Below, piece after piece: positions 2,946 to 26,011 of a stretch of 32,000 nt of DNA (positions are counted from its first letter, which is position 1; each line of letters starts with the position of its first letter). The DNA comes from Sinorhizobium meliloti (GTDB lineage: Bacteria; Pseudomonadota; Alphaproteobacteria; Rhizobiales; Rhizobiaceae), in the NCBI RefSeq assembly GCF_017876815.1, contig NZ_JAGIOS010000002.1, positions 690,001 through 722,000 of the forward strand, written 5' to 3'. The notes below the pieces were generated by a model that was given only the letters and a program-made list of their open reading frames with translations, ran no database searches and had not been told where the DNA came from. The position numbers and the translations under genes were made by a program.

Positions 2946-4295
2946 TTACTCGGCCGCCTGAACGGTGGCGCGCGCCAAAGTCCACGGGTTCGCCGGTCGG
3001 GGAAGACCGAGATTTTCCCGCAGCGTCCGCCCCTCATAGGCGGTGCGGAACAGGCCGCGTCTCTGCAGTATTGGGATGACCAGATCGACGAAATCGTCGA
3101 GCGCGCCCGGAAGCCATGGCGGCAGGATGTTGAACCCGTCGGCGGCTTCGCTGAGGAACCACTCCTCGAGCTGATCGGCGACCTGCTCGGCGCTGCCGAC
3201 GACGGTGTAGTGACCGCGTGCGGTCGCGATCCACTGATAGAGCTGGCGGATGGTGAAGCCATGCTCATCCGCGATCTTCCGGATCAGCGCCTGCCGGCTT
3301 TTCATCCCCTCTGTCTCATTGCTGACGGGTAAGGGCCCATCGAGCGGATATCCCGTCAGGTCGAGCGTGCCGCCGGTCAGGCCATTCAACAGCGCCACGC
3401 CGTCCTCCGGCACGATCAGCGCATTCAGCTCTTCATATTTGGAGCGCGCCTCCTCTTCGGTCCGGCCGACAAAGGGGGCCACTCCCGGCATGATCAGAAC
3501 ATGTTCGGGGTTGCGCCCGGCGCGCTTCACCCGTGCCTTGATGTCACGGTAGAATTCCTGCGCCGAAGCGAGGTTCTGATGGGCGGTGAAGATCACCTCG
3601 GCGCTGACCGCCGCAAGCCTGCGTCCGTCCTCGGATTGCCCCGCCTGCACCACGACCGGGTGCCCCTGTACGGGACGCGGCGCGTTCAGCGGTCCTTTGA
3701 CGCTGAAATGCTTGCCCTTGTGGTCGATGTCGTGAACCCGGCCGGCGTCGAAGAAGCGGCCGGTCGCCTTGTCACGGATGAAGGCGTCATCTTCCCAGCT
3801 GTCCCATAGAGCCTTGACGGTCTCGACGTGCTCGTGCGCGCGCTCGTATCGGTCGGCGTGGCTCGGCTGCGTTTCTCTGTTGAAGTTGCGTGCCGTCTCG
3901 TCGCCGGCGGAGGTGACCACGTTCCAGCCTGCCCGCCCGTTGGAAAGAAGGTCGAGCGAGGCGAACTTGCGGGCGAGCGTGTAGGGCTCCTCATAGGTCG
4001 TCGACGCCGTGGCGATGAAGCCCAGATGGGTCGTCAGCGGCGCGAGTGCTGCAAAGAGGGTGACAGGCTCGAAACCGGCGATCTTCGCATTGCCGCCTTC
4101 GCGGCCGCCAAGCCCGACGGAGAGGTTGTCGGCGAGAAAATAGGCGTCGAACAGGCCGCGCTCCGCGGTCTCGGCGAGCCTTCTGTGGAATTCGAAATTC
4201 GTGGCACCGTCTGCCGGAGCGTCCGGATGCCTCCAGGCGGCAATATGCTGGCCCCCGCCGGGGAGAAAGGCTCCAAGCTTGATCTGTCTGGTCAT
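2946..4295 (-). CDS. LLM-class FMNH2-dependent monooxygenase, NtaA/SnaA/DszA family
   Basis: MTRQIKLGAFLPGGGQHIAAWRHP.. start is typical of the family. GGAGG Shine-Dalgarno (reverse complement of 4301-4306) favours ATG 4295 over the track start 4334. Confidence 0.92.
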   Translation of the reverse strand: MTRQIKLGAFLPGGGQHIAAWRHPDAPADGATNFEFHRRLAETAERGLFDAYFLADNLSVGLGGREGGNAKIAGFEPVTLFAALAPLTTHLGFIATASTTYEEPYTLARKFASLDLLSNGRAGWNVVTSAGDETARNFNRETQPSHADRYERAHEHVETVKALWDSWEDDAFIRDKATGRFFDAGRVHDIDHKGKHFSVKGPLNAPRPVQGHPVVVQAGQSEDGRRLAAVSAEVIFTAHQNLASAQEFYRDIKARVKRAGRNPEHVLIMPGVAPFVGRTEEEARSKYEELNALIVPEDGVALLNGLTGGTLDLTGYPLDGPLPVSNETEGMKSRQALIRKIADEHGFTIRQLYQWIATARGHYTVVGSAEQVADQLEEWFLSEAADGFNILPPWLPGALDDFVDLVIPILQRRGLFRTAYEGRTLRENLGLPRPANPWTLARATVQAAE

Positions 4296-4382
4296 TGCTG
4301 CCTCCGTTGGATTTGCTTCACCGGCCGGCGTCACTACGCTTCGATTCCCGACGCAAACCGGTTGGTGTGATTGAATTTGCGG

Positions 4383-4940
4383 CTAGGCCGCCAAGCTTGC
4401 CCTGGCGGCGCGCGCGAGCGCCTGCGTTGCCTCACCGACCGCCCTTCCGACGCGGGCATGGATCGCCTCCGAGGCGAGAGCGCCGTCGGCAAAGTCCTTG
4501 TCGGAGGCGTAGATCGCAGTCGGCATCGCCAATGCCTCGAAGAAGCCGAACAGTGGCCGCAACTGATGCTCCACCATCAGCGAGTGGCGTTCCCCGCCCC
4601 CGGTCGCGGCGAGGATGACGGGCTTGCCGCGGAGCGAGGAGGGATCGAGCAGGTCGAAGACGTGCTTGAAGAGGCCGGTATAGCTTCCCTTGAAGGTCGG
4701 CGACGCGACCACCAGGATGTCGGCTGCAAGGATCTGGCCGACGACATAACGCGCCTCCGGCGCGAGTTCGTCGAGCCTTCTCGCAGGGAGCAGGGACGCC
4801 CCGAAATCCTCGATATCGAAGGTCTGCGCCGACGCGCCGGCATCGACCGCCAGGCGGTGGACGATATGGTCCACGAATGCGCGTGTCCTGGACGGACGCG
4901 TGATATTGCCTGAAATACCCACCACTCGTGTCTGCGGCAT
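4383..4940 (-). CDS. NAD(P)H-dependent FMN reductase (SsuE/MsuE-like), partner of the monooxygenase
   Basis: MPQTRVVGISGNITRPSRT.. flavodoxin-like reductase N-terminus. GGGGAG Shine-Dalgarno before ATG 4940; the track start 4985 adds 15 non-conserved residues. Confidence 0.88.
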   Translation of the reverse strand: MPQTRVVGISGNITRPSRTRAFVDHIVHRLAVDAGASAQTFDIEDFGASLLPARRLDELAPEARYVVGQILAADILVVASPTFKGSYTGLFKHVFDLLDPSSLRGKPVILAATGGGERHSLMVEHQLRPLFGFFEALAMPTAIYASDKDFADGALASEAIHARVGRAVGEATQALARAARASLAA

Positions 4941-5120
4941 CGCTTTAGCTCCCCGTGAGATCCATGCTTCTCTATTATTCATCAAAATCTATAATCTTAG
5001 TAGACTAAAGGAACGCCATTCTATTCCAGGTACGCGAACAAGAAGACTTTGCTTTGGGGGCGTCCCTCGGGGAACAAAGCACCGGCCGCGGTGTTACCGC
5101 CAGACAAGTGCAAGACCGCC

Positions 5121-7748
5121 ATGCATCTGCCCGACGCAACCTACCGTCTCCAGTTCCGCAACGGGATGGACTTCGCAAAAGCCGTGGAGTTGATCCCGCA
5201 CTTCGTCGGGCTCGGCATCTCCCACCTCTACGCCTCGCCCCTTTTCACCGCGGTCCGCGGGTCGACCCATGGCTACGACATCGTCGATTACAACGAGATC
5301 GACCCGGCCCTGGGCGGCTACGATGGATTTGTGCGGCTCGCTCATGCGCTGAAAGCCGAAGGACTCGGTCTCGTTCTGGACATCGTCCCGAACCACATGG
5401 CCGCGCATCTCGAGAATGACTGGTGGCACAGCGTGATCGAATGGGGCCGCCTTAGCGAATTTGCCGATTGTTTCGACATCGACTGGCGGGAGCCGCTCAC
5501 GCTCCCCTTCCTCGGAAAGTCGTTTGAGGAAGAGGTCGCAGCCGGCAATCTGCGCCTTGCATACGACCACGAGCACCGCTGCCTAGCGCTTCGATATTAC
5601 GAGGCTCTCTATCCGCTCAATCCCACCAGCTATGCGGCGATCCCGGGCAACGGTAATGCCGCGCTCGAAAGGATCGCGGCTGTCGCCGGCACGGCCGAAC
5701 GGAAAACCGCCGCACAGTTCCACGCGGAAATCGCCTCTGTCGTCGCGACGCCGTCGATCGCGGCCGAGCTCGACCAATGTCTCGCGCGGTTTTCCGCAGA
5801 CACACTGCAGTTCGACCGGCTGCATCGAATGCAATCCTGGCGGCTGATGAGCTGGCAGACGGCCCGGGACAAGCTCAGCTACCGACGGTTTTTCGAGGTC
5901 GCCGGCCTCATCGGCATGCGCGTCGAAGATGAAGCGGTCTTCACGGAGACCCACCGACTTGCGCTCGCCCTCGTCCGGGAAGGCCTGATCGATGGGCTCA
6001 GGATCGACCACATCGACGGCCTGGCCGATCCGAAGGGCTATCTCGATCGGCTCCGCCGGGAGGCCGGCGACGGCACCTATATTATTGTCGAGAAAATACT
6101 CGGCGAGAACGAAACGCTGCCGGAGGACTGGGCAGTCGCGGGGGCAACCGGCTACGAGTTCATATCGGCCCTCGCGGATCTTCTTTCCGACGACACTACG
6201 TCTTCGTGGCTTTCAAGCGAGGAAAGGCGATCCGCGGCCGAAGAGGCGGTCACGGGATGCAAACTTCAGGTCCTGAGCCGCAATTTCAATACGGAAGTCC
6301 GACGGCTGACCGGACTGGCCGCTCGCTTCACAGGCGACGGGGCTCCGGATCAGAACGTGCGGACCGGTGAGGCCATTCGCCAGCTGGTGGCGGCACTGCC
6401 CGTCTATCGGACCTATGTCGGCGACCAGGGGGCCGGAGCGCGCGACAGCCGCATCCTCGACGGGATAGCAGCGAAGGCGGCGGCGCGCGCGCCCGCCGCC
6501 GGCGCCGAAATCGCAGCGATCGTTTCCGCACTCAGGGCGCCGGTCGACTCGGCGGACGGCAAGCTGCGGTCCGAATTCCGCACGCGGTTTCAGCAGTTGA
6601 GCGGCGCGGTCATGGCCAAGGCGGTCGAGGACACCTTCTTCTATCGGAGAGGCGATTATCTCGCGGCGAACGAGGTGGGTTCCTCCCCCTTCTGGATGCC
6701 CGGCGGCGTCGGCCGCTTTCATGCGATGATGCAGGATCGCGCAAGCGAGATGCCGCACGGCCTGTCGGCTACGTCCACGCACGACACCAAGCGGGGGGAG
6801 GATGCGCGCGCCCGGCTCCACGTCGTCAGCGAGGCACTGGACGTCTGGGCAGCAGCGGTGGACCGCTGGCACGGGATGAATGCGGAAAGCATGGGCCGAC
6901 TCCCGGCCGGCGAGAAACCGGACGCTCCGGTCGAGCAATTCCTCTATCAGAGCCTGCTCGGCGTCTGGCCGATCGCGCCCCTTGGTGACGAAGACGACCT
7001 GATTTCCCTGCACGAGCGGATGGTCGATTTCGCCGTGAAGGCGCTGCGGGAGGCAAAGCTCAGGACGAGCTGGGACGATCCGAACGAGCGCTATGAAGCA
7101 GCGATCAAGGCCTTTCTCGGCGATCTCCTGGATTGGCATAACCGGTCTTTCCTCGGCGATTTCGAGAAAACGGCCGGACCGTTCATCCATGCCGGCCTGA
7201 TCAACAGCCTCTCGCAAACGCTGGTGAAGCTCACCGCGCCCGGCATTCCCGATATCTATCAGGGCAGCGAACGCATCGACCTTTCCCTCGTCGATCCCGA
7301 CAACCGCCGCGGCTTTTCACCGCGCCGCTCGCTTTCCCAGCTACCGCAAGCGCCGACGATCGGCGATTTCGAGGACTGCAAGCAGAGGCTGATCTCGATA
7401 GGCCTGAACTATCGCCAGGGGCGCGGCGCGGATTGTCTTGCGAGAGGCGAATATCGCGTAGTGCGCGTCGAAGGTCCGGGCGCCCGCCACGCAGCCGCTT
7501 TCATGCGTCGCAGCAGGGATGGCTTTGCGCTAACGGTCGTCCCGCGGCTTGTCTTCGGCCAAACGGCAGACGGTCGCCTGTCCATCCGTCCGGAACTGTG
7601 GCGAAACACCTTCCTCGCCTGGCCCGAGGGCTGCCAATTCAAGCCCATGTGCAATCTCCTGACCGGCGGCGTCGCCGAGCCTCGGCCTCTTCTTGCCGTG
7701 GCGGACATTCTACGGGACTTCCCCGTCGCCTTGCTGGTCGAGGCGTGA
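5121..7748 (+). CDS. treY: Malto-oligosyltrehalose synthase
   Basis: ATYRLQFRNGMDF..GISHLYASPLF..GSTHGYD..DIVPNHMA are GH13 TreY hallmarks. ATG 5121 begins the conserved region. Confidence 0.93.
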   Translation: MHLPDATYRLQFRNGMDFAKAVELIPHFVGLGISHLYASPLFTAVRGSTHGYDIVDYNEIDPALGGYDGFVRLAHALKAEGLGLVLDIVPNHMAAHLENDWWHSVIEWGRLSEFADCFDIDWREPLTLPFLGKSFEEEVAAGNLRLAYDHEHRCLALRYYEALYPLNPTSYAAIPGNGNAALERIAAVAGTAERKTAAQFHAEIASVVATPSIAAELDQCLARFSADTLQFDRLHRMQSWRLMSWQTARDKLSYRRFFEVAGLIGMRVEDEAVFTETHRLALALVREGLIDGLRIDHIDGLADPKGYLDRLRREAGDGTYIIVEKILGENETLPEDWAVAGATGYEFISALADLLSDDTTSSWLSSEERRSAAEEAVTGCKLQVLSRNFNTEVRRLTGLAARFTGDGAPDQNVRTGEAIRQLVAALPVYRTYVGDQGAGARDSRILDGIAAKAAARAPAAGAEIAAIVSALRAPVDSADGKLRSEFRTRFQQLSGAVMAKAVEDTFFYRRGDYLAANEVGSSPFWMPGGVGRFHAMMQDRASEMPHGLSATSTHDTKRGEDARARLHVVSEALDVWAAAVDRWHGMNAESMGRLPAGEKPDAPVEQFLYQSLLGVWPIAPLGDEDDLISLHERMVDFAVKALREAKLRTSWDDPNERYEAAIKAFLGDLLDWHNRSFLGDFEKTAGPFIHAGLINSLSQTLVKLTAPGIPDIYQGSERIDLSLVDPDNRRGFSPRRSLSQLPQAPTIGDFEDCKQRLISIGLNYRQGRGADCLARGEYRVVRVEGPGARHAAAFMRRSRDGFALTVVPRLVFGQTADGRLSIRPELWRNTFLAWPEGCQFKPMCNLLTGGVAEPRPLLAVADILRDFPVALLVEA

Positions 7749-7761
7749 GCACGGATCAACC

Positions 7762-8817
7762 TCACACCCGCCCTAGCCGCCGGACGTTGCCGGCGAGCTC
7801 GGCGGCGAGCCTCAATGCGGCCGCCGTCGCGCCGACCATCTGCGGCAGGATCAGCCATTCGAGCGTCCAGGCGGAGCCCGAGCGCTCCTGCTCGTGCACC
7901 AGCGACTGGTGGATGGCGGAAACCTGCGTCGCGTTGAAGCGGGCGAGTGTCACCAGCACCTCCGCGGCGACCGGATTCTGCTTGTGCGGCATGGCCGAGG
8001 AGCCTCCGCCGCCGGCAAGCACGATCTCGTCTCCCGCCTGCGCCATCAGCGCCACGTCCTGACCGAACTTGCCGAGGCTGCCGGTGACGAGCGACAGGAG
8101 GTGGGCGAAATCGGCGATCGGCAGGCGCTGGCTGTGCCATTGCGGGCAGTCGACCAGCGCGAGTTCCTCCGCCAGCGTCGCGCGGACGATGTCGGCCTTG
8201 CCCTTGAGCTTTTCGAGCGTGCCGGCGGCTCCTCCGAACTGCACCGCGAAAATGTCCGTGCCCGTGGCATCCAGCCTGTCCTGATGGTCGAGCAGCGGCT
8301 CGATCCAGCTCCGCAGTCGGTCGGCGACCGTAATCGGGATCGCCGGCTGCATCCGCGTATGGGCGGTCAGCGCACGCTCGCCCCAGTGCCGCCCGCAAGC
8401 TTCGAGCGCCGTCACGACGTCGCCGACCCGGCCGGAGAAAAGTTCCGCGATCGCCTTCAGCCTCAGCATGAGGCTGGTATCGACCACGTCCTGGCTGGTG
8501 GCTCCGAAATGGACATGTTCCGCCGCCTCTTCGCCGACCGCCCGGCGCAATTGCCGCACGAGCTCGGGAACGACGACACCGTCGATGGCAGTTGCCCGGC
8601 GCATGGCGCCGACGTCCGGAGAGAAGCCACGGCATGCCTCGGCAATGCGATTGGCGGCCGCTTCGGGGATGACGCCGTGGCGCGCCTCGGCACGCGCAAG
8701 CGCCGCCTCGAAGGCCAGCATGGCGCGAACATCGGCGACGACGGAGAATTCCGCCGCCACCGCCTCGTCTCCGAGAAGGCCGGAAAGATAGGGGTGATCG
8801 AAGGCCGAATAGGTCAT
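7762..8817 (-). CDS. pcaB: 3-carboxy-cis,cis-muconate cycloisomerase (short, Agrobacterium-type)
   Basis: Fumarase/aspartase superfamily signature GSSAMPHKQNP. Last gene of the pcaDCHGB cluster. Confidence 0.92.
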   Translation of the reverse strand: MTYSAFDHPYLSGLLGDEAVAAEFSVVADVRAMLAFEAALARAEARHGVIPEAAANRIAEACRGFSPDVGAMRRATAIDGVVVPELVRQLRRAVGEEAAEHVHFGATSQDVVDTSLMLRLKAIAELFSGRVGDVVTALEACGRHWGERALTAHTRMQPAIPITVADRLRSWIEPLLDHQDRLDATGTDIFAVQFGGAAGTLEKLKGKADIVRATLAEELALVDCPQWHSQRLPIADFAHLLSLVTGSLGKFGQDVALMAQAGDEIVLAGGGGSSAMPHKQNPVAAEVLVTLARFNATQVSAIHQSLVHEQERSGSAWTLEWLILPQMVGATAAALRLAAELAGNVRRLGRV

Positions 8818-20641: not shown

Positions 20642-21502
20642 ATGGCGCGGATAATGTCTCTCGCCGAGGCGGTAGAGGAGAATGTCAGAGACGGCGATAC
20701 GGTTGCGATGGAAGGCTTCACGCACCTGATCCCCTACGCCGCGGGGCACGAGGTGATTCGCCAAGGCCGGAAGGACCTGTTCCTTGTGCGCATGACGCCC
20801 GACATCCTCTACGACCAGCTGATCGGAGTCGGTGCGGCACGGGGCATGAAGTTCTCCTGGGGCGGCAATCCCGGCGTCGGCTCGCTGCACCGCTTTCGCG
20901 ATGCGGTCGAGAACCAATGGCCGCGACCGCTCGAGATCGAGGAGCATTCGCATGCCGCCATGGCCAATGCCTATGAGGCGGGTGCCGCGAACCTGCCTTT
21001 TGCGGCCTTCCGCGGCTATATCGGCGCCGACCTGCCTAAGGTGAACGTCAATATCAGAAGCGTGACCTGTCCCTTCACCGGCGAGGTGCTCGCCGCGGTG
21101 CCTGCAATCCGCCCGGACGTGACGATCATCCATGCCCAGCGTGCCGACCGCAACGGCAACGTCCTGATCGAGGGGATCGTCGGCGTACAGAAGGAAGCGG
21201 TGCTCGCCGCCAGGCGCTCGATCGTGACGGTCGAGGAGATCGTCGACGAACTCTCACCGCCCTCGCCCAATTCGGTGGTGCTGCCGGGTTGGGCGGTGAC
21301 TGCCGTCGCGCATGTGCCGGGCGGCGCCTTCCCGTCCTATGCGCATGGTTACTATCCCCGCTCCAACGCCTTCTACATCCGTTGGGACGAGATTGCCCGC
21401 GACCGGGAGACGTTCACCGCATGGATCAGGGAGAACGTCCTTGCCGCAAAGCCCGAGGACTTCGCCCGCCACGCTGCGAAGACCGCGGCCAAGGTTGCTT
21501 GA
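20642..21502 (+). CDS. pcaI: 3-oxoadipate CoA-transferase subunit A
   Basis: CoA-transferase family I alpha subunit (glutaconate-CoA-transferase-like). GGAGGAAAA Shine-Dalgarno. Operon with pcaJ and pcaF. Confidence 0.88.
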   Translation: MARIMSLAEAVEENVRDGDTVAMEGFTHLIPYAAGHEVIRQGRKDLFLVRMTPDILYDQLIGVGAARGMKFSWGGNPGVGSLHRFRDAVENQWPRPLEIEEHSHAAMANAYEAGAANLPFAAFRGYIGADLPKVNVNIRSVTCPFTGEVLAAVPAIRPDVTIIHAQRADRNGNVLIEGIVGVQKEAVLAARRSIVTVEEIVDELSPPSPNSVVLPGWAVTAVAHVPGGAFPSYAHGYYPRSNAFYIRWDEIARDRETFTAWIRENVLAAKPEDFARHAAKTAAKVA

Positions 21503-21514
21503 GGGGAAGAAAAA

Positions 21515-22300
21515 ATGACTGATTTCACCCCCACCGAGATGATGACGATCGCCGCGGCGCGCGCGCTTTCCAACGACGACGTCTGCTTCGTCGGCATCGG
21601 CGCGCCGTCAGCCGCCTGCAATGTGGCGCGGCTGACGCATGCGCCGGATATCACGCTGATCTATGAGAGCGGCACCGTCGGCACCAAGCCCGACGTGCTG
21701 CCGCTCTCGATCGGCGACGGAGAGCTATGCGATACCGCGCTCTTCACCGTCTCGGTGCCGGAAATGTTCCGCTACTGGCTCCAGGGAGGCCGGATAACCA
21801 CGGGCTTCCTCGGCGGCGCGCAGATCGATCGTTTCGCCAATCTCAATACGACCGTCGTTGGCCCCTATGACCATCCCAAGGTGCGCCTGCCGGGAGGCGG
21901 CGGTGCGCCGGAAATCGCCTCCAATTGCGGCCGCATCTTCATCACCATGGCGCTGACGAAGCGCGGCTTCGTGGAGAGGCTGCCCTTCGTCACCTCCATG
22001 GGACACGGCGAAGGCGGCAATCATCGGGAGCGGCTCGGACTGACGACCAGCGGCCCGACCCGGGTCATCACGGATCTCTGCATTCTGGAGCCGGATCCGG
22101 AGACGAAGGAACTGACCGTCGTTTCCATGCACCCCGGCGTCGCTCGGGATCAGATCGCCGGAAATTGCGGCTGGCCGATCAAATTCGCGGAGACCGTCAT
22201 CGAAACACCGGCACCGACCGAGACCGAGCTGGTCGTTCTGCGCGACATCAACGCCCGCACCAAAAAGGCCCATAAGGCCGCGGGAAAGGAGGCAGCGTGA
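21515..22300 (+). CDS. pcaJ: 3-oxoadipate CoA-transferase subunit B
   Basis: CoA-transferase beta subunit, 12 nt after pcaI. Its stop overlaps the pcaF start. Confidence 0.88.
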   Translation: MTDFTPTEMMTIAAARALSNDDVCFVGIGAPSAACNVARLTHAPDITLIYESGTVGTKPDVLPLSIGDGELCDTALFTVSVPEMFRYWLQGGRITTGFLGGAQIDRFANLNTTVVGPYDHPKVRLPGGGGAPEIASNCGRIFITMALTKRGFVERLPFVTSMGHGEGGNHRERLGLTTSGPTRVITDLCILEPDPETKELTVVSMHPGVARDQIAGNCGWPIKFAETVIETPAPTETELVVLRDINARTKKAHKAAGKEAA

Positions 22301-23502
22301 TGCGCGAAGCCTATATCTGCGACTATATCCGCACCCCGATCGGCCGCTTCGGCGGCTCGCTCGCTTCGGTGCGCGCCGACGACCTCGGCGCCATACCGCT
22401 GAAGGCGCTGATGGACCGCAACAGGTCGGTCGACTGGGAAGCGGTCGATGACGTGATCTTCGGCTGCGCCAACCAGGCGGGCGAGGACAACCGCAACGTC
22501 GCACGCATGTCGCTGCTGCTTGCGGGGCTGCCCGTCGCCGTTCCCGGCACGACGATCAACCGGCTCTGCGGATCCGGAATGGACGCGGTGATTGCGGCCG
22601 CGCGGGCGATCAAATGCGGCGAGGCCGAGCTGATGATAGCCGGCGGCGTCGAATCCATGTCGCGGGCGCCTTTCGTGCTGCCGAAGGCCGAGAGCGCGTT
22701 TTCGCGCAACGCCGAAATTTACGACACGACGATCGGCTGGCGCTTCGTCAATCCGCTGATGAAGGCGCAATATGGCGTCGACTCGATGCCGGAGACCGGC
22801 GAGAACGTCGCCGAAGACTACAAGGTCTCGCGCGAGGACCAGGACGCCTTCGCCCTGCGCAGCCAGGCAAAGGCCGCGGCCGCCCAGGCGAACGGCCGCC
22901 TTGCGAGCGAGATCGTCGCCGTCACCATCCCCCAAAGGAAGGGTGGCCCGGTCGTCATCGACCGCGACGAGCATCCGCGCGCCACGACGATCGAGGCGCT
23001 CGCCGGGCTCAAGACACCCTTCCGGGAGGGCGGCACCGTCACCGCCGGCAACGCTTCGGGCGTCAACGACGGCGCTGCGGCGCTCATCATCGCCTCCGAG
23101 GAGGCTGCCAGAAAGCATGGGCTGCGACCCATGGCCCGCATCCTCGGGGGCGCTTCGGCCGGCGTGCCGCCGCGCATCATGGGCATGGGACCGGTGCCCG
23201 CCTCGCAGAGGCTCATGACGCGGATCGGCGCGACGCAAGATCGGTTCGACGTCATCGAGCTCAACGAGGCTTTTGCCAGCCAGGGGCTTGCGGTCCTGCG
23301 CGCGCTGGGAATCGCCGACGACGATCCCCGCGTCAACCGGAACGGCGGCGCCATCGCGCTCGGCCATCCGCTCGGCATGTCGGGTGCGCGCATCACCGGA
23401 ACGGCAGCGCTGGAGCTTGCCGAAACGGGTGGCCGCACCTCGCTCTCCACCATGTGCATCGGCGTCGGCCAGGGCATCGCGGTGGCGCTGGAGCGGGTGT
23501 AA
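22300..23502 (+). CDS. pcaF: Beta-ketoadipyl-CoA thiolase
   Basis: Thiolase motifs (..NRLCGSGMDA.., ..NGGAIALGHPLGMSGAR.., ..CIGVGQG..). ATG 22300 overlaps the pcaJ TGA; an alternative GTG start is at 22297. Confidence 0.93.
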   Translation: MREAYICDYIRTPIGRFGGSLASVRADDLGAIPLKALMDRNRSVDWEAVDDVIFGCANQAGEDNRNVARMSLLLAGLPVAVPGTTINRLCGSGMDAVIAAARAIKCGEAELMIAGGVESMSRAPFVLPKAESAFSRNAEIYDTTIGWRFVNPLMKAQYGVDSMPETGENVAEDYKVSREDQDAFALRSQAKAAAAQANGRLASEIVAVTIPQRKGGPVVIDRDEHPRATTIEALAGLKTPFREGGTVTAGNASGVNDGAAALIIASEEAARKHGLRPMARILGGASAGVPPRIMGMGPVPASQRLMTRIGATQDRFDVIELNEAFASQGLAVLRALGIADDDPRVNRNGGAIALGHPLGMSGARITGTAALELAETGGRTSLSTMCIGVGQGIAVALERV

Positions 23503-24103: not shown

Positions 24104-24133
24104 CTTGAAGATGCTGCACTGCAGCATTATTAT
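24104..24133 (+). promoter_or_regulatory. sigma70-like promoter of the sRNA (CTTGAA / TTGAAG-N17-TATTAT). Its spacer is a perfect 17-bp palindrome ATGCTGCAcTGCAGCAT (24111-24127).
   Basis: Hexamers and palindrome read directly. AT-rich UP-like tract upstream (24076-24100). Confidence 0.5.
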
Positions 24134-24139
24134 ATAACT

Positions 24140-24256
24140 GTCGATGGAACACTCCTCCTCCCAGTTCCATCGCGGGATCGGCAACCCTCCTCCTCCCAGT
24201 TGCCGGTCAGGATCGAAAGCCCGGCGCACCTCCTCCCGCGCCGGGTTTTCTCTTTC
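24140..24256 (+). ncRNA. Trans-acting small RNA of the CCUCCUCCC anti-Shine-Dalgarno class (alpha-r14/alpha-r35 NfeR1-like, also called 'cuckoo' / CcsR-like). Three hairpins each present CCUCCUCCC in the loop, and the third is the terminator.
   Basis: Hairpin 1: stem 24142-50/24164-72, motif in loop at 24154-62. Hairpin 2: stem 24176-85/24199-208, motif at 24189-97. Hairpin 3: CCCGGCGC/GCGCCGGG at 24220-27/24238-45, motif at 24229-37, followed by TTTTCTCTTTC. The 5' end is approximate, inferred from the promoter. Confidence 0.75.
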
Positions 24257-24348: not shown

Positions 24349-24377
24349 GGGAACATTTCCGGAGCTAGGGCATCCAA
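24349..24377 (+). promoter_or_regulatory. ECF-type promoter P1 (GGGAAC-N15-GCATCCAA) upstream of the ECF sigma gene; putative autoregulation
   Basis: Same 6-mer, same 15-nt spacing and same 8-mer as 25084-25112. TTTC follows GGGAACr in both copies. Confidence 0.55.
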
Positions 24378-24398
24378 TATCCGAGAAGGAGCCCGACC

Positions 24399-25082
24399 AT
24401 GCCTACCGCTGAAACCGACCTTTGCCTGAATGCGCCGCCACCTGCGCAGGACCTCGCCCGTTTCCGCGCGATCATGCAGGCGCACAACCGCAAGCTCTAC
24501 CGGATCGCCCGCAGCATCCTGCGCAACGACAGCGATGCGGAAGACGTGCTGCAGGAGGCATATGTCCGGGCCTTCACGCGCTTTGAGGATTTTCGCGGCG
24601 ATGCGGCGATCACGACCTGGCTCGCCCGCATCGTCATCAACGAGGCGCTCGGCCGCCTGCGGAAAAGACGGCGACAGATGAGACTGGCCAAGTACATGCG
24701 GCAGTCGCAAGAGGCGGAGATCATCGCCTTTCCCCTCAATTCAGGCATCAGCGATCCGGAAAAGACGATGGCACAGCGACAAATCCTCGATCTCGTCGAA
24801 AGGCTGACGGACGATCTCCCGGACACCTACCGCACCGTATTCGTGCTGCGCGTCATCGAAGGGCTCGACAACGAAGAGGCGGCCGCCCTGCTTGGCCTCA
24901 AACCGGAAACGGCACGCACAAGGCTGCACCGGGCGCGCCGCATCCTGAAAGAGCAGCTGGAGCGGCAGATCGGCCCGGTTCTGCTCGATGCCTTTCCTTT
25001 CGCGGGAAAGCGTTGCGAGCGTCTGACCGAGGCGGTTCTTGCCCGCATCTCGCCTCGGCCCCCGGAACCGGACGGAAAATAG
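24399..25082 (+). CDS. ECF-subfamily RNA polymerase sigma-70 factor
   Basis: Sigma2 region (..DAEDVLQEAYVRAF..TWLARIVINEALGRLRKRRR) and sigma4 region (..YRTVFVLRVIEGLDNEEAAALLGLKPETARTRLHRARRILKE). GAAGGAG Shine-Dalgarno. Confidence 0.92.
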   Translation: MPTAETDLCLNAPPPAQDLARFRAIMQAHNRKLYRIARSILRNDSDAEDVLQEAYVRAFTRFEDFRGDAAITTWLARIVINEALGRLRKRRRQMRLAKYMRQSQEAEIIAFPLNSGISDPEKTMAQRQILDLVERLTDDLPDTYRTVFVLRVIEGLDNEEAAALLGLKPETARTRLHRARRILKEQLERQIGPVLLDAFPFAGKRCERLTEAVLARISPRPPEPDGK

Positions 25083-25083
25083 C

Positions 25084-25112
25084 GGGAACGTTTCGAGCCG
25101 CGAAGCATCCAA
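25084..25112 (+). promoter_or_regulatory. ECF-type promoter P2 (GGGAAC-N15-GCATCCAA) upstream of the DUF4142-cupredoxin genes
   Basis: Starts 2 nt after the sigma gene stop codon. Identical motif and spacing to P1. Confidence 0.55.
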
Positions 25113-25160
25113 AGCATGTCGTTCAAACCAGGCTTTGATCTTCGAGGAAAGGAACATCCC

Positions 25161-25685
25161 ATGACTATCAAACTGACGACCGCAGCGGCCGCAATCGCCC
25201 TCCTCTTCAGCACCGGCGGGGCACTCGGCAACGACAAGCCGACCGACCCCCAAATCGCCCACATCGCCTACACTGCCGGCGTGCTCGACGTCGAAGCCGC
25301 CAAACAGGCAATCGCGACGTCGAAGAACAAGACCGTCGTCGAATTCGCCGAGAGCATGCTGCGCGACCACGAGTCGGTGAACAAGCAAGCCCTCGATCTC
25401 GTCAAGAAGCTCAACGTCACGCCCGAAGACAACGACACGAGCAAATCCCTCTCGCAAGCGGCCGAGGCGAAACGCCAGGAGCTGGCGAAGCTTAAGGGCG
25501 GGGAATTCGACAAGGCCTATATCGAACACGAGGTCGCCTACCACAAGCAGGTCAACGGCGCGCTGGAAACGCTGCTGATCCCGTCGGCTCAGAATGCCGA
25601 ACTCAAATCGCTGCTCGAGACCGGACTGAAGCTGTTCCAAGGACATCAGCAGCATGCCGAACACGTCGCGGCCGCATTGAAGTGA
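25161..25685 (+). CDS. DUF4142 domain-containing secreted protein
   Basis: Signal peptide MTIKLTTAAAAIALLFSTGGALG. Helical repeats with ..DHE..NKQA.. and ..YIEHEVAYHKQV.. are typical of DUF4142. ATG 25161 with GAGGAAAGGAA Shine-Dalgarno. Confidence 0.8.
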   Translation: MTIKLTTAAAAIALLFSTGGALGNDKPTDPQIAHIAYTAGVLDVEAAKQAIATSKNKTVVEFAESMLRDHESVNKQALDLVKKLNVTPEDNDTSKSLSQAAEAKRQELAKLKGGEFDKAYIEHEVAYHKQVNGALETLLIPSAQNAELKSLLETGLKLFQGHQQHAEHVAAALK

Positions 25686-26011
25686 GCGCGGCGATGTTCA
25701 TAACGCGAGCGGCAATTGTCTTATTGTCGATGGGAGCGGCCGCCGCCGCCGCTCCTTCGCAGGCGGAAACCATCCAGGTGTCGATCGATCGCCTCGTCTA
25801 CCTGCCCGCGGAGATCGAGGCGAAGGTGGGCGACGAGGTCGAGTGGATCAACAGGGATGCGCTCGTCCACACGGCGACCGTCGAAGGCGGCGCGGACGTG
25901 CTTCTGCCGGCGAACAAAACCGGCCGGCTGGTGCTTCAGGAAGCGGGCAGCTTCGATTATATCTGCCGCTACCATCCCAACATGAAGGGCCGCATCACCG
26001 TGCGGCCGTGA
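25682..26011 (+). CDS. Cupredoxin (type-1 copper, amicyanin-like ligand loop) with signal peptide
   Basis: ..VGDEVEWINRDALVHTA..FDYICRYHPNMKGRITV gives His plus a C-x2-H-x2-M ligand set. GTG 25682 overlaps the upstream stop (GTGA); an alternative ATG is at 25694. Confidence 0.82.
   Translation: MSAAMFITRAAIVLLSMGAAAAAAPSQAETIQVSIDRLVYLPAEIEAKVGDEVEWINRDALVHTATVEGGADVLLPANKTGRLVLQEAGSFDYICRYHPNMKGRITVRP

Follow-up and report, generated by a model that had tools for sequence, protein, structure and literature searches.

A conserved ECF29-type promoter motif precedes both rpoE8 and the DUF4142-cupredoxin genes of Sinorhizobium meliloti

Two copies of the motif GGGAAC-N15-GCATCCAA lie in the 32-kb window of Sinorhizobium meliloti DNA analysed here (the window being the whole stretch of 32,000 nucleotides), one before rpoE8, which encodes an ECF sigma factor of the ECF29 group, and the other before the genes for an exported DUF4142 protein and a cupredoxin. 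Judged by its conservation across related loci, the second copy (P2) is a selected cis-element of the DUF4142-cupredoxin operon with the geometry of a promoter, and it is very probably a genuine ECF29 promoter. The motif pair, the ECF29 assignment and the hypothesis of autoregulation were already published in 2018, in a study that covered the eleven ECF sigma factors of this species (Lang et al., 2018; mSphere 3:e00454-18, PMC6180224), and the finding is a rediscovery. What is added here, as leads throughout, is a quantitative footprint that argues for a functional P2, the wide spread of the sigma-DUF4142-cupredoxin cluster beyond nodulating bacteria, and a candidate extended ECF29 regulon. 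ECF29 is a widespread sigma group without an anti-sigma factor, and the mode of its activation is where the remaining interest lies.

The 2.5 kb around the motif pair are 100% identical to the megaplasmid pSymB of S. meliloti SM11 (NC_017326.1), and the genes of the module, all on the forward strand, are the orthologues of rpoE8 (SMb20592), SMb20593 and amcY (SMb20594). The identities first proposed for them, namely an ECF sigma factor, a DUF4142 protein and a cupredoxin, are borne out by their Pfam domains. The rpoE8 gene (24399-25082) encodes an ECF29 sigma factor of 227 aa with the domains Sigma70_r2, Sigma70_r4_2 and Sigma70_ECF, and an S. meliloti protein cluster matches this protein at 99% identity. 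The SMb20593 orthologue (25161-25685) encodes an exported, ferritin-like DUF4142 protein of 174 aa (Pfam DUF4142, E = 2e-37). The third gene, amcY (25682-26011), encodes an exported cupredoxin, an amicyanin-like blue copper protein (Pfam Cupredoxin_1 and Copper-bind) in which the copper-ligand motif C-x2-H-x2-M takes the form CRYHPNM; its start is either GTG 25682 or ATG 25694, of which the latter is more likely. The module has just two intergenic spacers, as had been seen before, the DUF4142 and cupredoxin genes abutting or overlapping.

A divergent acylphosphatase gene lies upstream of rpoE8 and a convergent ftsK downstream of the module; the neighbours of rpoE8 are acylphosphatase, the ar14 sRNA, the exported DUF4142 protein, the cupredoxin and FtsK. 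The same locus in strain Rm1021, with the gene order acyP / rpoE8 / SMb20593 / amcY, was given the same interpretation (Lang et al., 2018), and the SM11 locus shows no substantive difference from it. A literature search on DUF4142 found no functional study of the domain, and one remark in the literature describes DUF4142 as ferritin-like and periplasmic, in a lanthanide-chelator gene cluster.

The first copy of the motif (P1, 24349-24377, forward strand) is the ECF29-type promoter of rpoE8, with GGGAAC at 24349-24354, a 15-nt spacer and GCATCCAA at 24370-24377. The second copy (P2, 25084-25112, forward strand), which presumably serves the DUF4142-cupredoxin genes as promoter, has GGGAAC at 25084-25089, again a 15-nt spacer, and GCATCCAA at 25105-25112, and it begins 1 nt past the rpoE8 stop codon. 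The preliminary description of the window had placed both copies correctly before the ECF sigma gene and the DUF4142-cupredoxin genes and had rightly pointed out their identical spacing and the TTTC that follows GGGAAC[A/G] in each; its count of 18 identical positions out of 29 needs correction to 19, as one more G of the spacer matches. These are the two exact copies in the 32-kb window, which contains no others at up to two mismatches. At up to three mismatches a single further site appears, at 8246, which is background level, and no extra local targets of the motif were found in the window.

Lang et al. (2018) print both sites in their Table 1, as GGGAACATTTCCGGAGATAGGGCATCCAATATCCGAGAA for rpoE8 and as GGGAACGTTTCGAGCCGCGAAGCATCCAAAGCATGTCGT for SMb20593. 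P2 of the window agrees base for base with the published 39-mer of SMb20593, and P1 departs from the published rpoE8 39-mer at a single position of the spacer, where the window has C in place of A. The -35 box GGGAAC and the -10 box GCATCCAA are identical to the cross-species ECF29 consensus, for which Lang et al. (2018) cite Staron 2009 and Rhodius 2013, and in their analysis ECFfinder assigns RpoE8 to ECF29. In the same study P2 was found by visual inspection, as a perfect match to the RpoE8 -35 and -10 boxes within the 77-nt intergenic region between rpoE8 and SMb20593, and its significance was left 'to be determined'.

The conservation of P2 was assessed on 80 loci (575,774 nt), taken from one-genome-per-species contigs that were retrieved via an alignment of 20 sigma homologues. 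The sigma family is very large, over 7,000 database proteins belonging to it at E <= 1e-10, and the sampled loci span Sinorhizobium/Ensifer, Mesorhizobium, Rhizobium, Phyllobacterium, Pseudaminobacter, Bradyrhizobium, Afipia and Pseudolabrys as well as Xanthobacteraceae, Methylocella/Beijerinckiaceae and one Acetobacteraceae genome. Nearly all loci have one site before the sigma gene and one right past its stop codon, and the spacer is always 15 nt long. At this spacing and with up to two mismatches allowed, the 575,774 nt hold 157 sites, compared with 3-8 in shuffled sequence. Spacers of 11-13 and 16-19 nt gave 1-5 sites each over the same sequence, and the 28 matches with a 14-nt spacer are register-shifted reads of spacer-15 sites. 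When the window is included with the 80 loci the sites number 159, of which 69 stand before the sigma gene and 64 before the DUF4142 gene as first called; four more were assigned to DUF4142 once mis-called or truncated ORFs had been corrected.

The association does not depend on finding the motif beforehand. In a motif-independent test the genes were anchored by protein homology and the best site was then sought in the 200 nt upstream of each. All 70 scorable DUF4142 genes have a site with at most three mismatches (40 of them an exact one), and so do 79 of the 80 sigma genes, while random windows typically reach 5-6 mismatches at best. In 61 of 65 loci the DUF4142 gene starts 45-63 nt past the -10 box, the value for the window being 48 nt, and amcY lies 3' of the DUF4142 gene in 69 of the 80 loci. 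The logo of the de-replicated sites reads C-GGGAAC-(C/G)TTT, 11 variable bases and (G)CATCCAA(T), and beyond the two boxes and the CTTT extension the information content of the intergenic DNA is near zero, which amounts to a phylogenetic footprint. The motif is non-palindromic and orientation-specific, and it faces the downstream gene.

The site also accompanies the DUF4142 gene where the gene order is altered. For example, eight loci have folE and a Rieske-FAD reductase gene between the sigma and DUF4142 genes, and there the site precedes DUF4142, 2.4 kb away from the sigma gene. Likewise, the Aminobacter plasmid pAM01, which has no adjacent sigma gene, carries separate sites before folE, before DUF4142 and before a divergent reductase gene. 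Mesorhizobium, like Aminobacter, has systems in which folE and the reductase gene each possess a site. Within Sinorhizobium/Ensifer, P2 is exact or has one mismatch in all the species sampled, although their spacers differ. The sites upstream of DUF4142 have in addition a CGTCAAC block, 5-11 nt past the -10 box. The CGTC of this block was considered as the true -10 element of P2 and was rejected, as the spacing from the -35 box would then be about 28 nt.

The position of P2 bears on the start codon of the DUF4142 gene as well. A transcript from P2 would start at or past 25116, the first of two candidate ATG codons, and the choice of the second, ATG 25161, in the preliminary description is well backed. 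A strong ribosome-binding site (AGGAAAGGA, 25144-25152) lies 8 nt before ATG 25161, and the signal-peptide-like N-terminus MTIKLTTAAAAIALLFSTGGALG opens directly at this codon. The extension from ATG 25116 is lost in related species, the codon being ACG in S. medicae and the reading frame running GTG-TGA, with a stop, in S. americanum. This start is not new, because the 77-nt intergenic region given by Lang et al. (2018) from the Rm1021 annotation implies the same one.

The preliminary description had read the two sites as the signature of an autoregulated ECF sigma factor and its target operon, and this reading is upheld in part. On the positive side stand the identity with the ECF29 consensus, the conservation of both sites and a mapped start at P1: 5'-RACE placed two transcription starts ahead of rpoE8, and the P1 motif precedes one of them (Lang et al., 2018). 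On the assumption that the printed 39-mer runs up to this start, it would fall at about 24387 in the window. The second rpoE8 start site has no motif and lies upstream of P1. The expected start at P2 was not recovered, as neither 5'-RACE nor RNA-seq found one for SMb20593 (Lang et al., 2018).

The induction that had been predicted for 25161-26011 on overexpression of the sigma factor is contradicted, taken literally, by the published experiment. A 126-fold overexpression of rpoE8 in S. meliloti CL150 changed only rpoE8 itself and revealed zero targets, SMb20593 and amcY both being listed as 'NC' (no change). The construct, as judged from the primers, carried full-length RpoE8 with its tail included, in a wild-type host (Lang et al., 2018). 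This negative result weakens the case for RpoE8-dependence without excluding it, because an inactive sigma factor would look identical. Nor can autoregulation from P1 be read from these data, because the array signal does not tell chromosomal rpoE8 apart from the plasmid-borne copy. Expression of rpoE8 is reported to be higher in nodules. There, amcY was 2.6- to 3.2-fold up in two strains, one with the delta-rpoE8-SMb20593 deletion and one devoid of all ECF sigma factors (PMC6180224); part of the transcription of the region is therefore independent of RpoE8 and of any ECF sigma factor. A Bacillus subtilis switch paper reported the sigma-promoter pair ECF29_SMb20592 as inactive, and this is uninformative because all eight S. 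meliloti ECF factors tested there failed.

These data lend themselves to a reading in which P2 is silent or vestigial in S. meliloti and SMb20593-amcY depend solely on transcripts that run on from P1 or from the second rpoE8 promoter, which lies further upstream and lacks the motif. Such a reading accounts for the missing start and the missing induction at P2; no terminator-like structure separates rpoE8 from SMb20593, and the rise of amcY occurs when the deletion places amcY beside the P1 region, even in the absence of ECF sigma factors. It is at odds with the exact or one-mismatch site kept in every sampled Sinorhizobium/Ensifer species despite differing spacers, and with the retention of the site by every scorable DUF4142 gene, even those 2.4 kb from a sigma gene or without one. 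A relic is unlikely to last in this way, and the negative experiments used conditions in which the operon is essentially unexpressed. A silent P2 is hence considered rather improbable. The site is conserved before each DUF4142-cupredoxin operon examined, and elsewhere before folE and the Rieske-FAD reductase gene, and the negative overexpression therefore points to an inactive sigma factor rather than to a meaningless motif.

It might also be that the motif is read by another sigma factor through cross-talk, or by a DNA-binding regulator, and that its link with ECF29 is merely genomic. The dependence of P1 and P2 on RpoE8 is after all deduced, and the region is transcribed in nodules of the strain that lacks every ECF sigma factor. 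Against this, a GGAAC-type -35 element with a rigid spacer is a hallmark of ECF promoters, and the motif is non-palindromic, strictly oriented to the downstream gene and at promoter distance from the start codons. In 79 of 80 loci it is found together with an ECF29 gene, transcription at P1 was mapped to a start past the -10 box, and cross-talk was limited in the map of 43 ECF sigma groups, as that work is cited by Lang et al. (2018; their ref. 31). A reader other than RpoE8 is accordingly unlikely, and only a small probability is given to it. Chance, or a recent local duplication without function, has next to no probability and is excluded as the source of the likeness between P1 and P2, for nothing favours it except that the motif is short, with 14 specified bases. 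With up to two mismatches allowed, 0.21 matches are expected by chance in the window, and of 100 shuffles that preserved dinucleotides 0 gave two. Moreover, conservation of the boxes extends across families, and the pair is not a duplication because the spacers of P1 and P2 differ.

RpoE8 itself has the features of an ECF29 sigma factor. It consists of regions 2 and 4 only (Sigma70_r2 at residues 26-92 and Sigma70_r4_2 at residues 132-181), with no region 3 or 1. Members of group ECF29 are described as lacking an anti-sigma factor and as ending in an extension of about 30 aa that bears an RCE/D motif (Casas-Pastor 2021; PMC7826278), and a 2022 review places it under 'others', among the factors that are regulated via C-terminal extensions. 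RpoE8 shares with the group the sigma-2 and sigma-4 regions only, the RCE/D tail, the lack of a neighbouring anti-sigma gene and, upstream, the promoter consensus GGGAAC / GCATCCAA as quoted for ECF29 by Lang et al. (2018), and no difference from it was found. An ORF with an anti-sigma domain and a transmembrane segment was not seen among the neighbours of rpoE8, and Lang et al. (2018) likewise report no anti-sigma gene near it. In the literature up to 2021-2022, the negative overexpression in S. meliloti was the only experimental work on an ECF29 factor. Literature matches to 'ECF29' in Cupriavidus refer to ECF291 and were set aside as irrelevant.

The C-terminal extension of RpoE8 spans residues 190-227 (about 38 residues; 24966-25079, forward strand) and contains the block QIGPVLLDAFPFAG[K/R]RCERLT, the core of which can also be written FPFAG-x-RCE. 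The block is invariant in alignments of 20 and of 62 homologues, with Cys206 as the sole invariant cysteine. Over the 62 homologues no variation occurs at R205, C206 or R208, while conservation of E207 is at least 90%. An AlphaFold model built on the 62-sequence alignment (mean pLDDT 66) was used to see if the tail docks on sigma-2 or on sigma-4; in it the tail residues 194-227 stay below about 52 and have no confident placement.

The reading that is favoured here, and that is considered likely, takes both motif copies as ECF29 promoters, P1 autoregulatory and P2 the target, with RpoE8 made in an inactive form. RNA polymerase loaded with RpoE8 would transcribe rpoE8 itself from P1, in a positive autoregulation, and P2 would drive the exported DUF4142 protein and AmcY from a start a few bases past its -10 box, giving a leader of about 40 nt before ATG 25161. 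RpoE8 would be produced inactive and would need an activating signal, possibly redox or metal, sensed via the tail. The motif, its match to the ECF29 consensus, a start at P1 and the deep conservation of both sites are established, and we infer the RpoE8-dependence of P1 and P2, the position of the P2 start and the control by the tail. RpoE8 is probably inactive under laboratory conditions, and an inactive RpoE8 would in turn explain why overexpression of the full-length protein fails to fire P2 in spite of the deep conservation of this site.

A tentative extension of this model, possible although held with clearly less confidence, is that ECF29 factors are one-component sensors. The single-cysteine tail would silence the factor until a redox or metal signal, possibly copper, arrives, and the active factor would then run a conserved alphaproteobacterial regulon. 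If true, this would provide a first mechanism and a first function for ECF29 and would explain the silence of full-length RpoE8.

A functional parallel to such a sensor is offered by CorE and CorE2 of Myxococcus xanthus (ECF44, now ECF238), which like RpoE8 have no anti-sigma factor and carry a short cysteine-containing C-terminal extension that in CorE types controls activity. Copper proteins belong to the CorE regulon. The likeness is a functional analogy only: the ECF29 tail has one invariant cysteine whereas CorE has a CxC-rich cluster, and the promoter motif and the phylogenetic group differ. An M. xanthus ECF238 member is activated by metal (Cd2+/Zn2+) via its extension (Casas-Pastor 2021; PMC7826278). 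The canonical pairs of ECF and anti-sigma genes, such as sigma-E/RseA, sigma-W/RsiW and the S. meliloti ECF26 factors RpoE1/3/4/6 with EcfR, share with RpoE8 a GGAAC-type promoter of their own and a small local regulon marked by the same motif. In contrast to these, rpoE8 has no co-transcribed anti-sigma gene, and the next gene encodes the exported DUF4142 protein, which has no transmembrane anti-sigma features. The targets of the ECF26 paralogues were induced by overexpression in the study of Lang et al. (2018), whereas those of RpoE8 were not.

The comparison of loci suggests an ECF29 regulon that would comprise the exported ferritin-like DUF4142 protein, the cupredoxin, to which many lineages would add a second GTP cyclohydrolase I (FolE) together with a Rieske-FAD oxidoreductase. 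The folE paralogue and the Rieske-FAD oxidoreductase gene are found in 24 of the 80 loci, and they are put forward as a candidate extended ECF29 regulon, a lead and not a demonstration. Plasmid-borne Sinorhizobium paralogues of the Rieske-FAD reductase (in S. meliloti LMB1, S. fredii and S. terangae, three loci) have no site at up to three mismatches, and the visible regulon in Sinorhizobium is therefore the local one with its two promoters. The three-gene cluster had been described as uncommon outside plant-nodulating bacteria (Lang et al., 2018); in the present sample the sigma-DUF4142-cupredoxin cluster occurs in lineages that do not nodulate, among them Afipia, Xanthobacteraceae and Methylocella.

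Of the 80 related loci compared with the window, 24 show linkage of the ECF29 sigma gene with a gene for a second FolE, with one for a Rieske-FAD oxidoreductase, or with both. The FolE concerned is a second GTP cyclohydrolase I (PF01227), and the oxidoreductase, of ~510 aa, combines a Rieske [2Fe-2S] domain with an FAD-dependent part of the pyridine-nucleotide-disulfide type. The linked genes lie at about 4190-6450 of the locus in L013, L014, L016, L019, L023, L026, L028, L037, L038, L040, L045, L049, L053, L056, L060 and L067, at about 2676-3390 in L027, L029, L033, L046 and L047, and on the minus strand at about 3330-1710 in L012, L015 and L018; L081 is listed with these loci. In many of the 24 loci the linked folE or reductase gene is preceded by a GGGAAC-N15-GCATCCAA site of its own, and the linkage and these sites therefore suggest a conserved ECF29 regulon with four effector genes. 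At its rpoE8 locus, S. meliloti carries only the DUF4142-cupredoxin part of this set. Separately, a site of the GGGAAC-N15-GCATCCAA type with two mismatches (L065, minus strand, 3141) lies ahead of a gene for a 450-aa exported protein, which carries a pair of CxxCH haem-binding motifs and matches no Pfam family; being one case alone, this site could be due to chance.

Upstream of the module, apparent beta-ketoadipate pathway genes occupy 20642-23502 (plus strand); these are two ORFs resembling CoA-transferase subunits and a thiolase-like ORF (22297-23502), all from translations read by eye only. The presence of pcaB (SMb20575) nearby on pSymB in the data set of Lang 2018 (PMC6180224) agrees with this reading. 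These genes are without relation to the GGGAAC-N15 promoter pair.

Between acyP and the rpoE8 promoter lies an sRNA of the ar14 family (24136-24253, plus strand; Rfam RF02344, 108.5 bits, E = 2e-19), with three hairpins presenting the anti-Shine-Dalgarno-like CCUCCUCCC in their loops and a T-run at its terminal end. SMb20591, the ORF annotated in the acyP-rpoE8 interval, is treated as a pseudogene by Lang 2018 (PMC6180224). The perfect palindrome AGATGCTGCACTGCAGCATTA (24109-24129, plus strand; element 24105-24133) is a PhaR/AniA binding site assigned to 'rpoE8 / acyP' in a 2025 mSystems paper (PMC12542648). Its real target may be the ar14 sRNA and not rpoE8, because the palindrome is enclosed by a sigma-70-like promoter (TTGAAG-17-TATTAT) ending 3 nt 5' of the sRNA, whereas rpoE8 is 290 nt away, on the far side of the sRNA terminator.

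Judged from its sequence, the leader of the DUF4142 gene may be an RNA element. Outside Sinorhizobium (L017-L080), its stretch ~20-55 nt after the -10 box of the P2-type promoter preceding this gene carries a conserved CGTCAAC[T/C]GAAAAC block and, after it, a GC-rich hairpin (e.g. GCCCGG...CCGGGC) directly 5' of the ribosome-binding site. In Sinorhizobium (window 25113-25160), CGCTTTGATCTTCGAGGAAAGGAAC is conserved instead.
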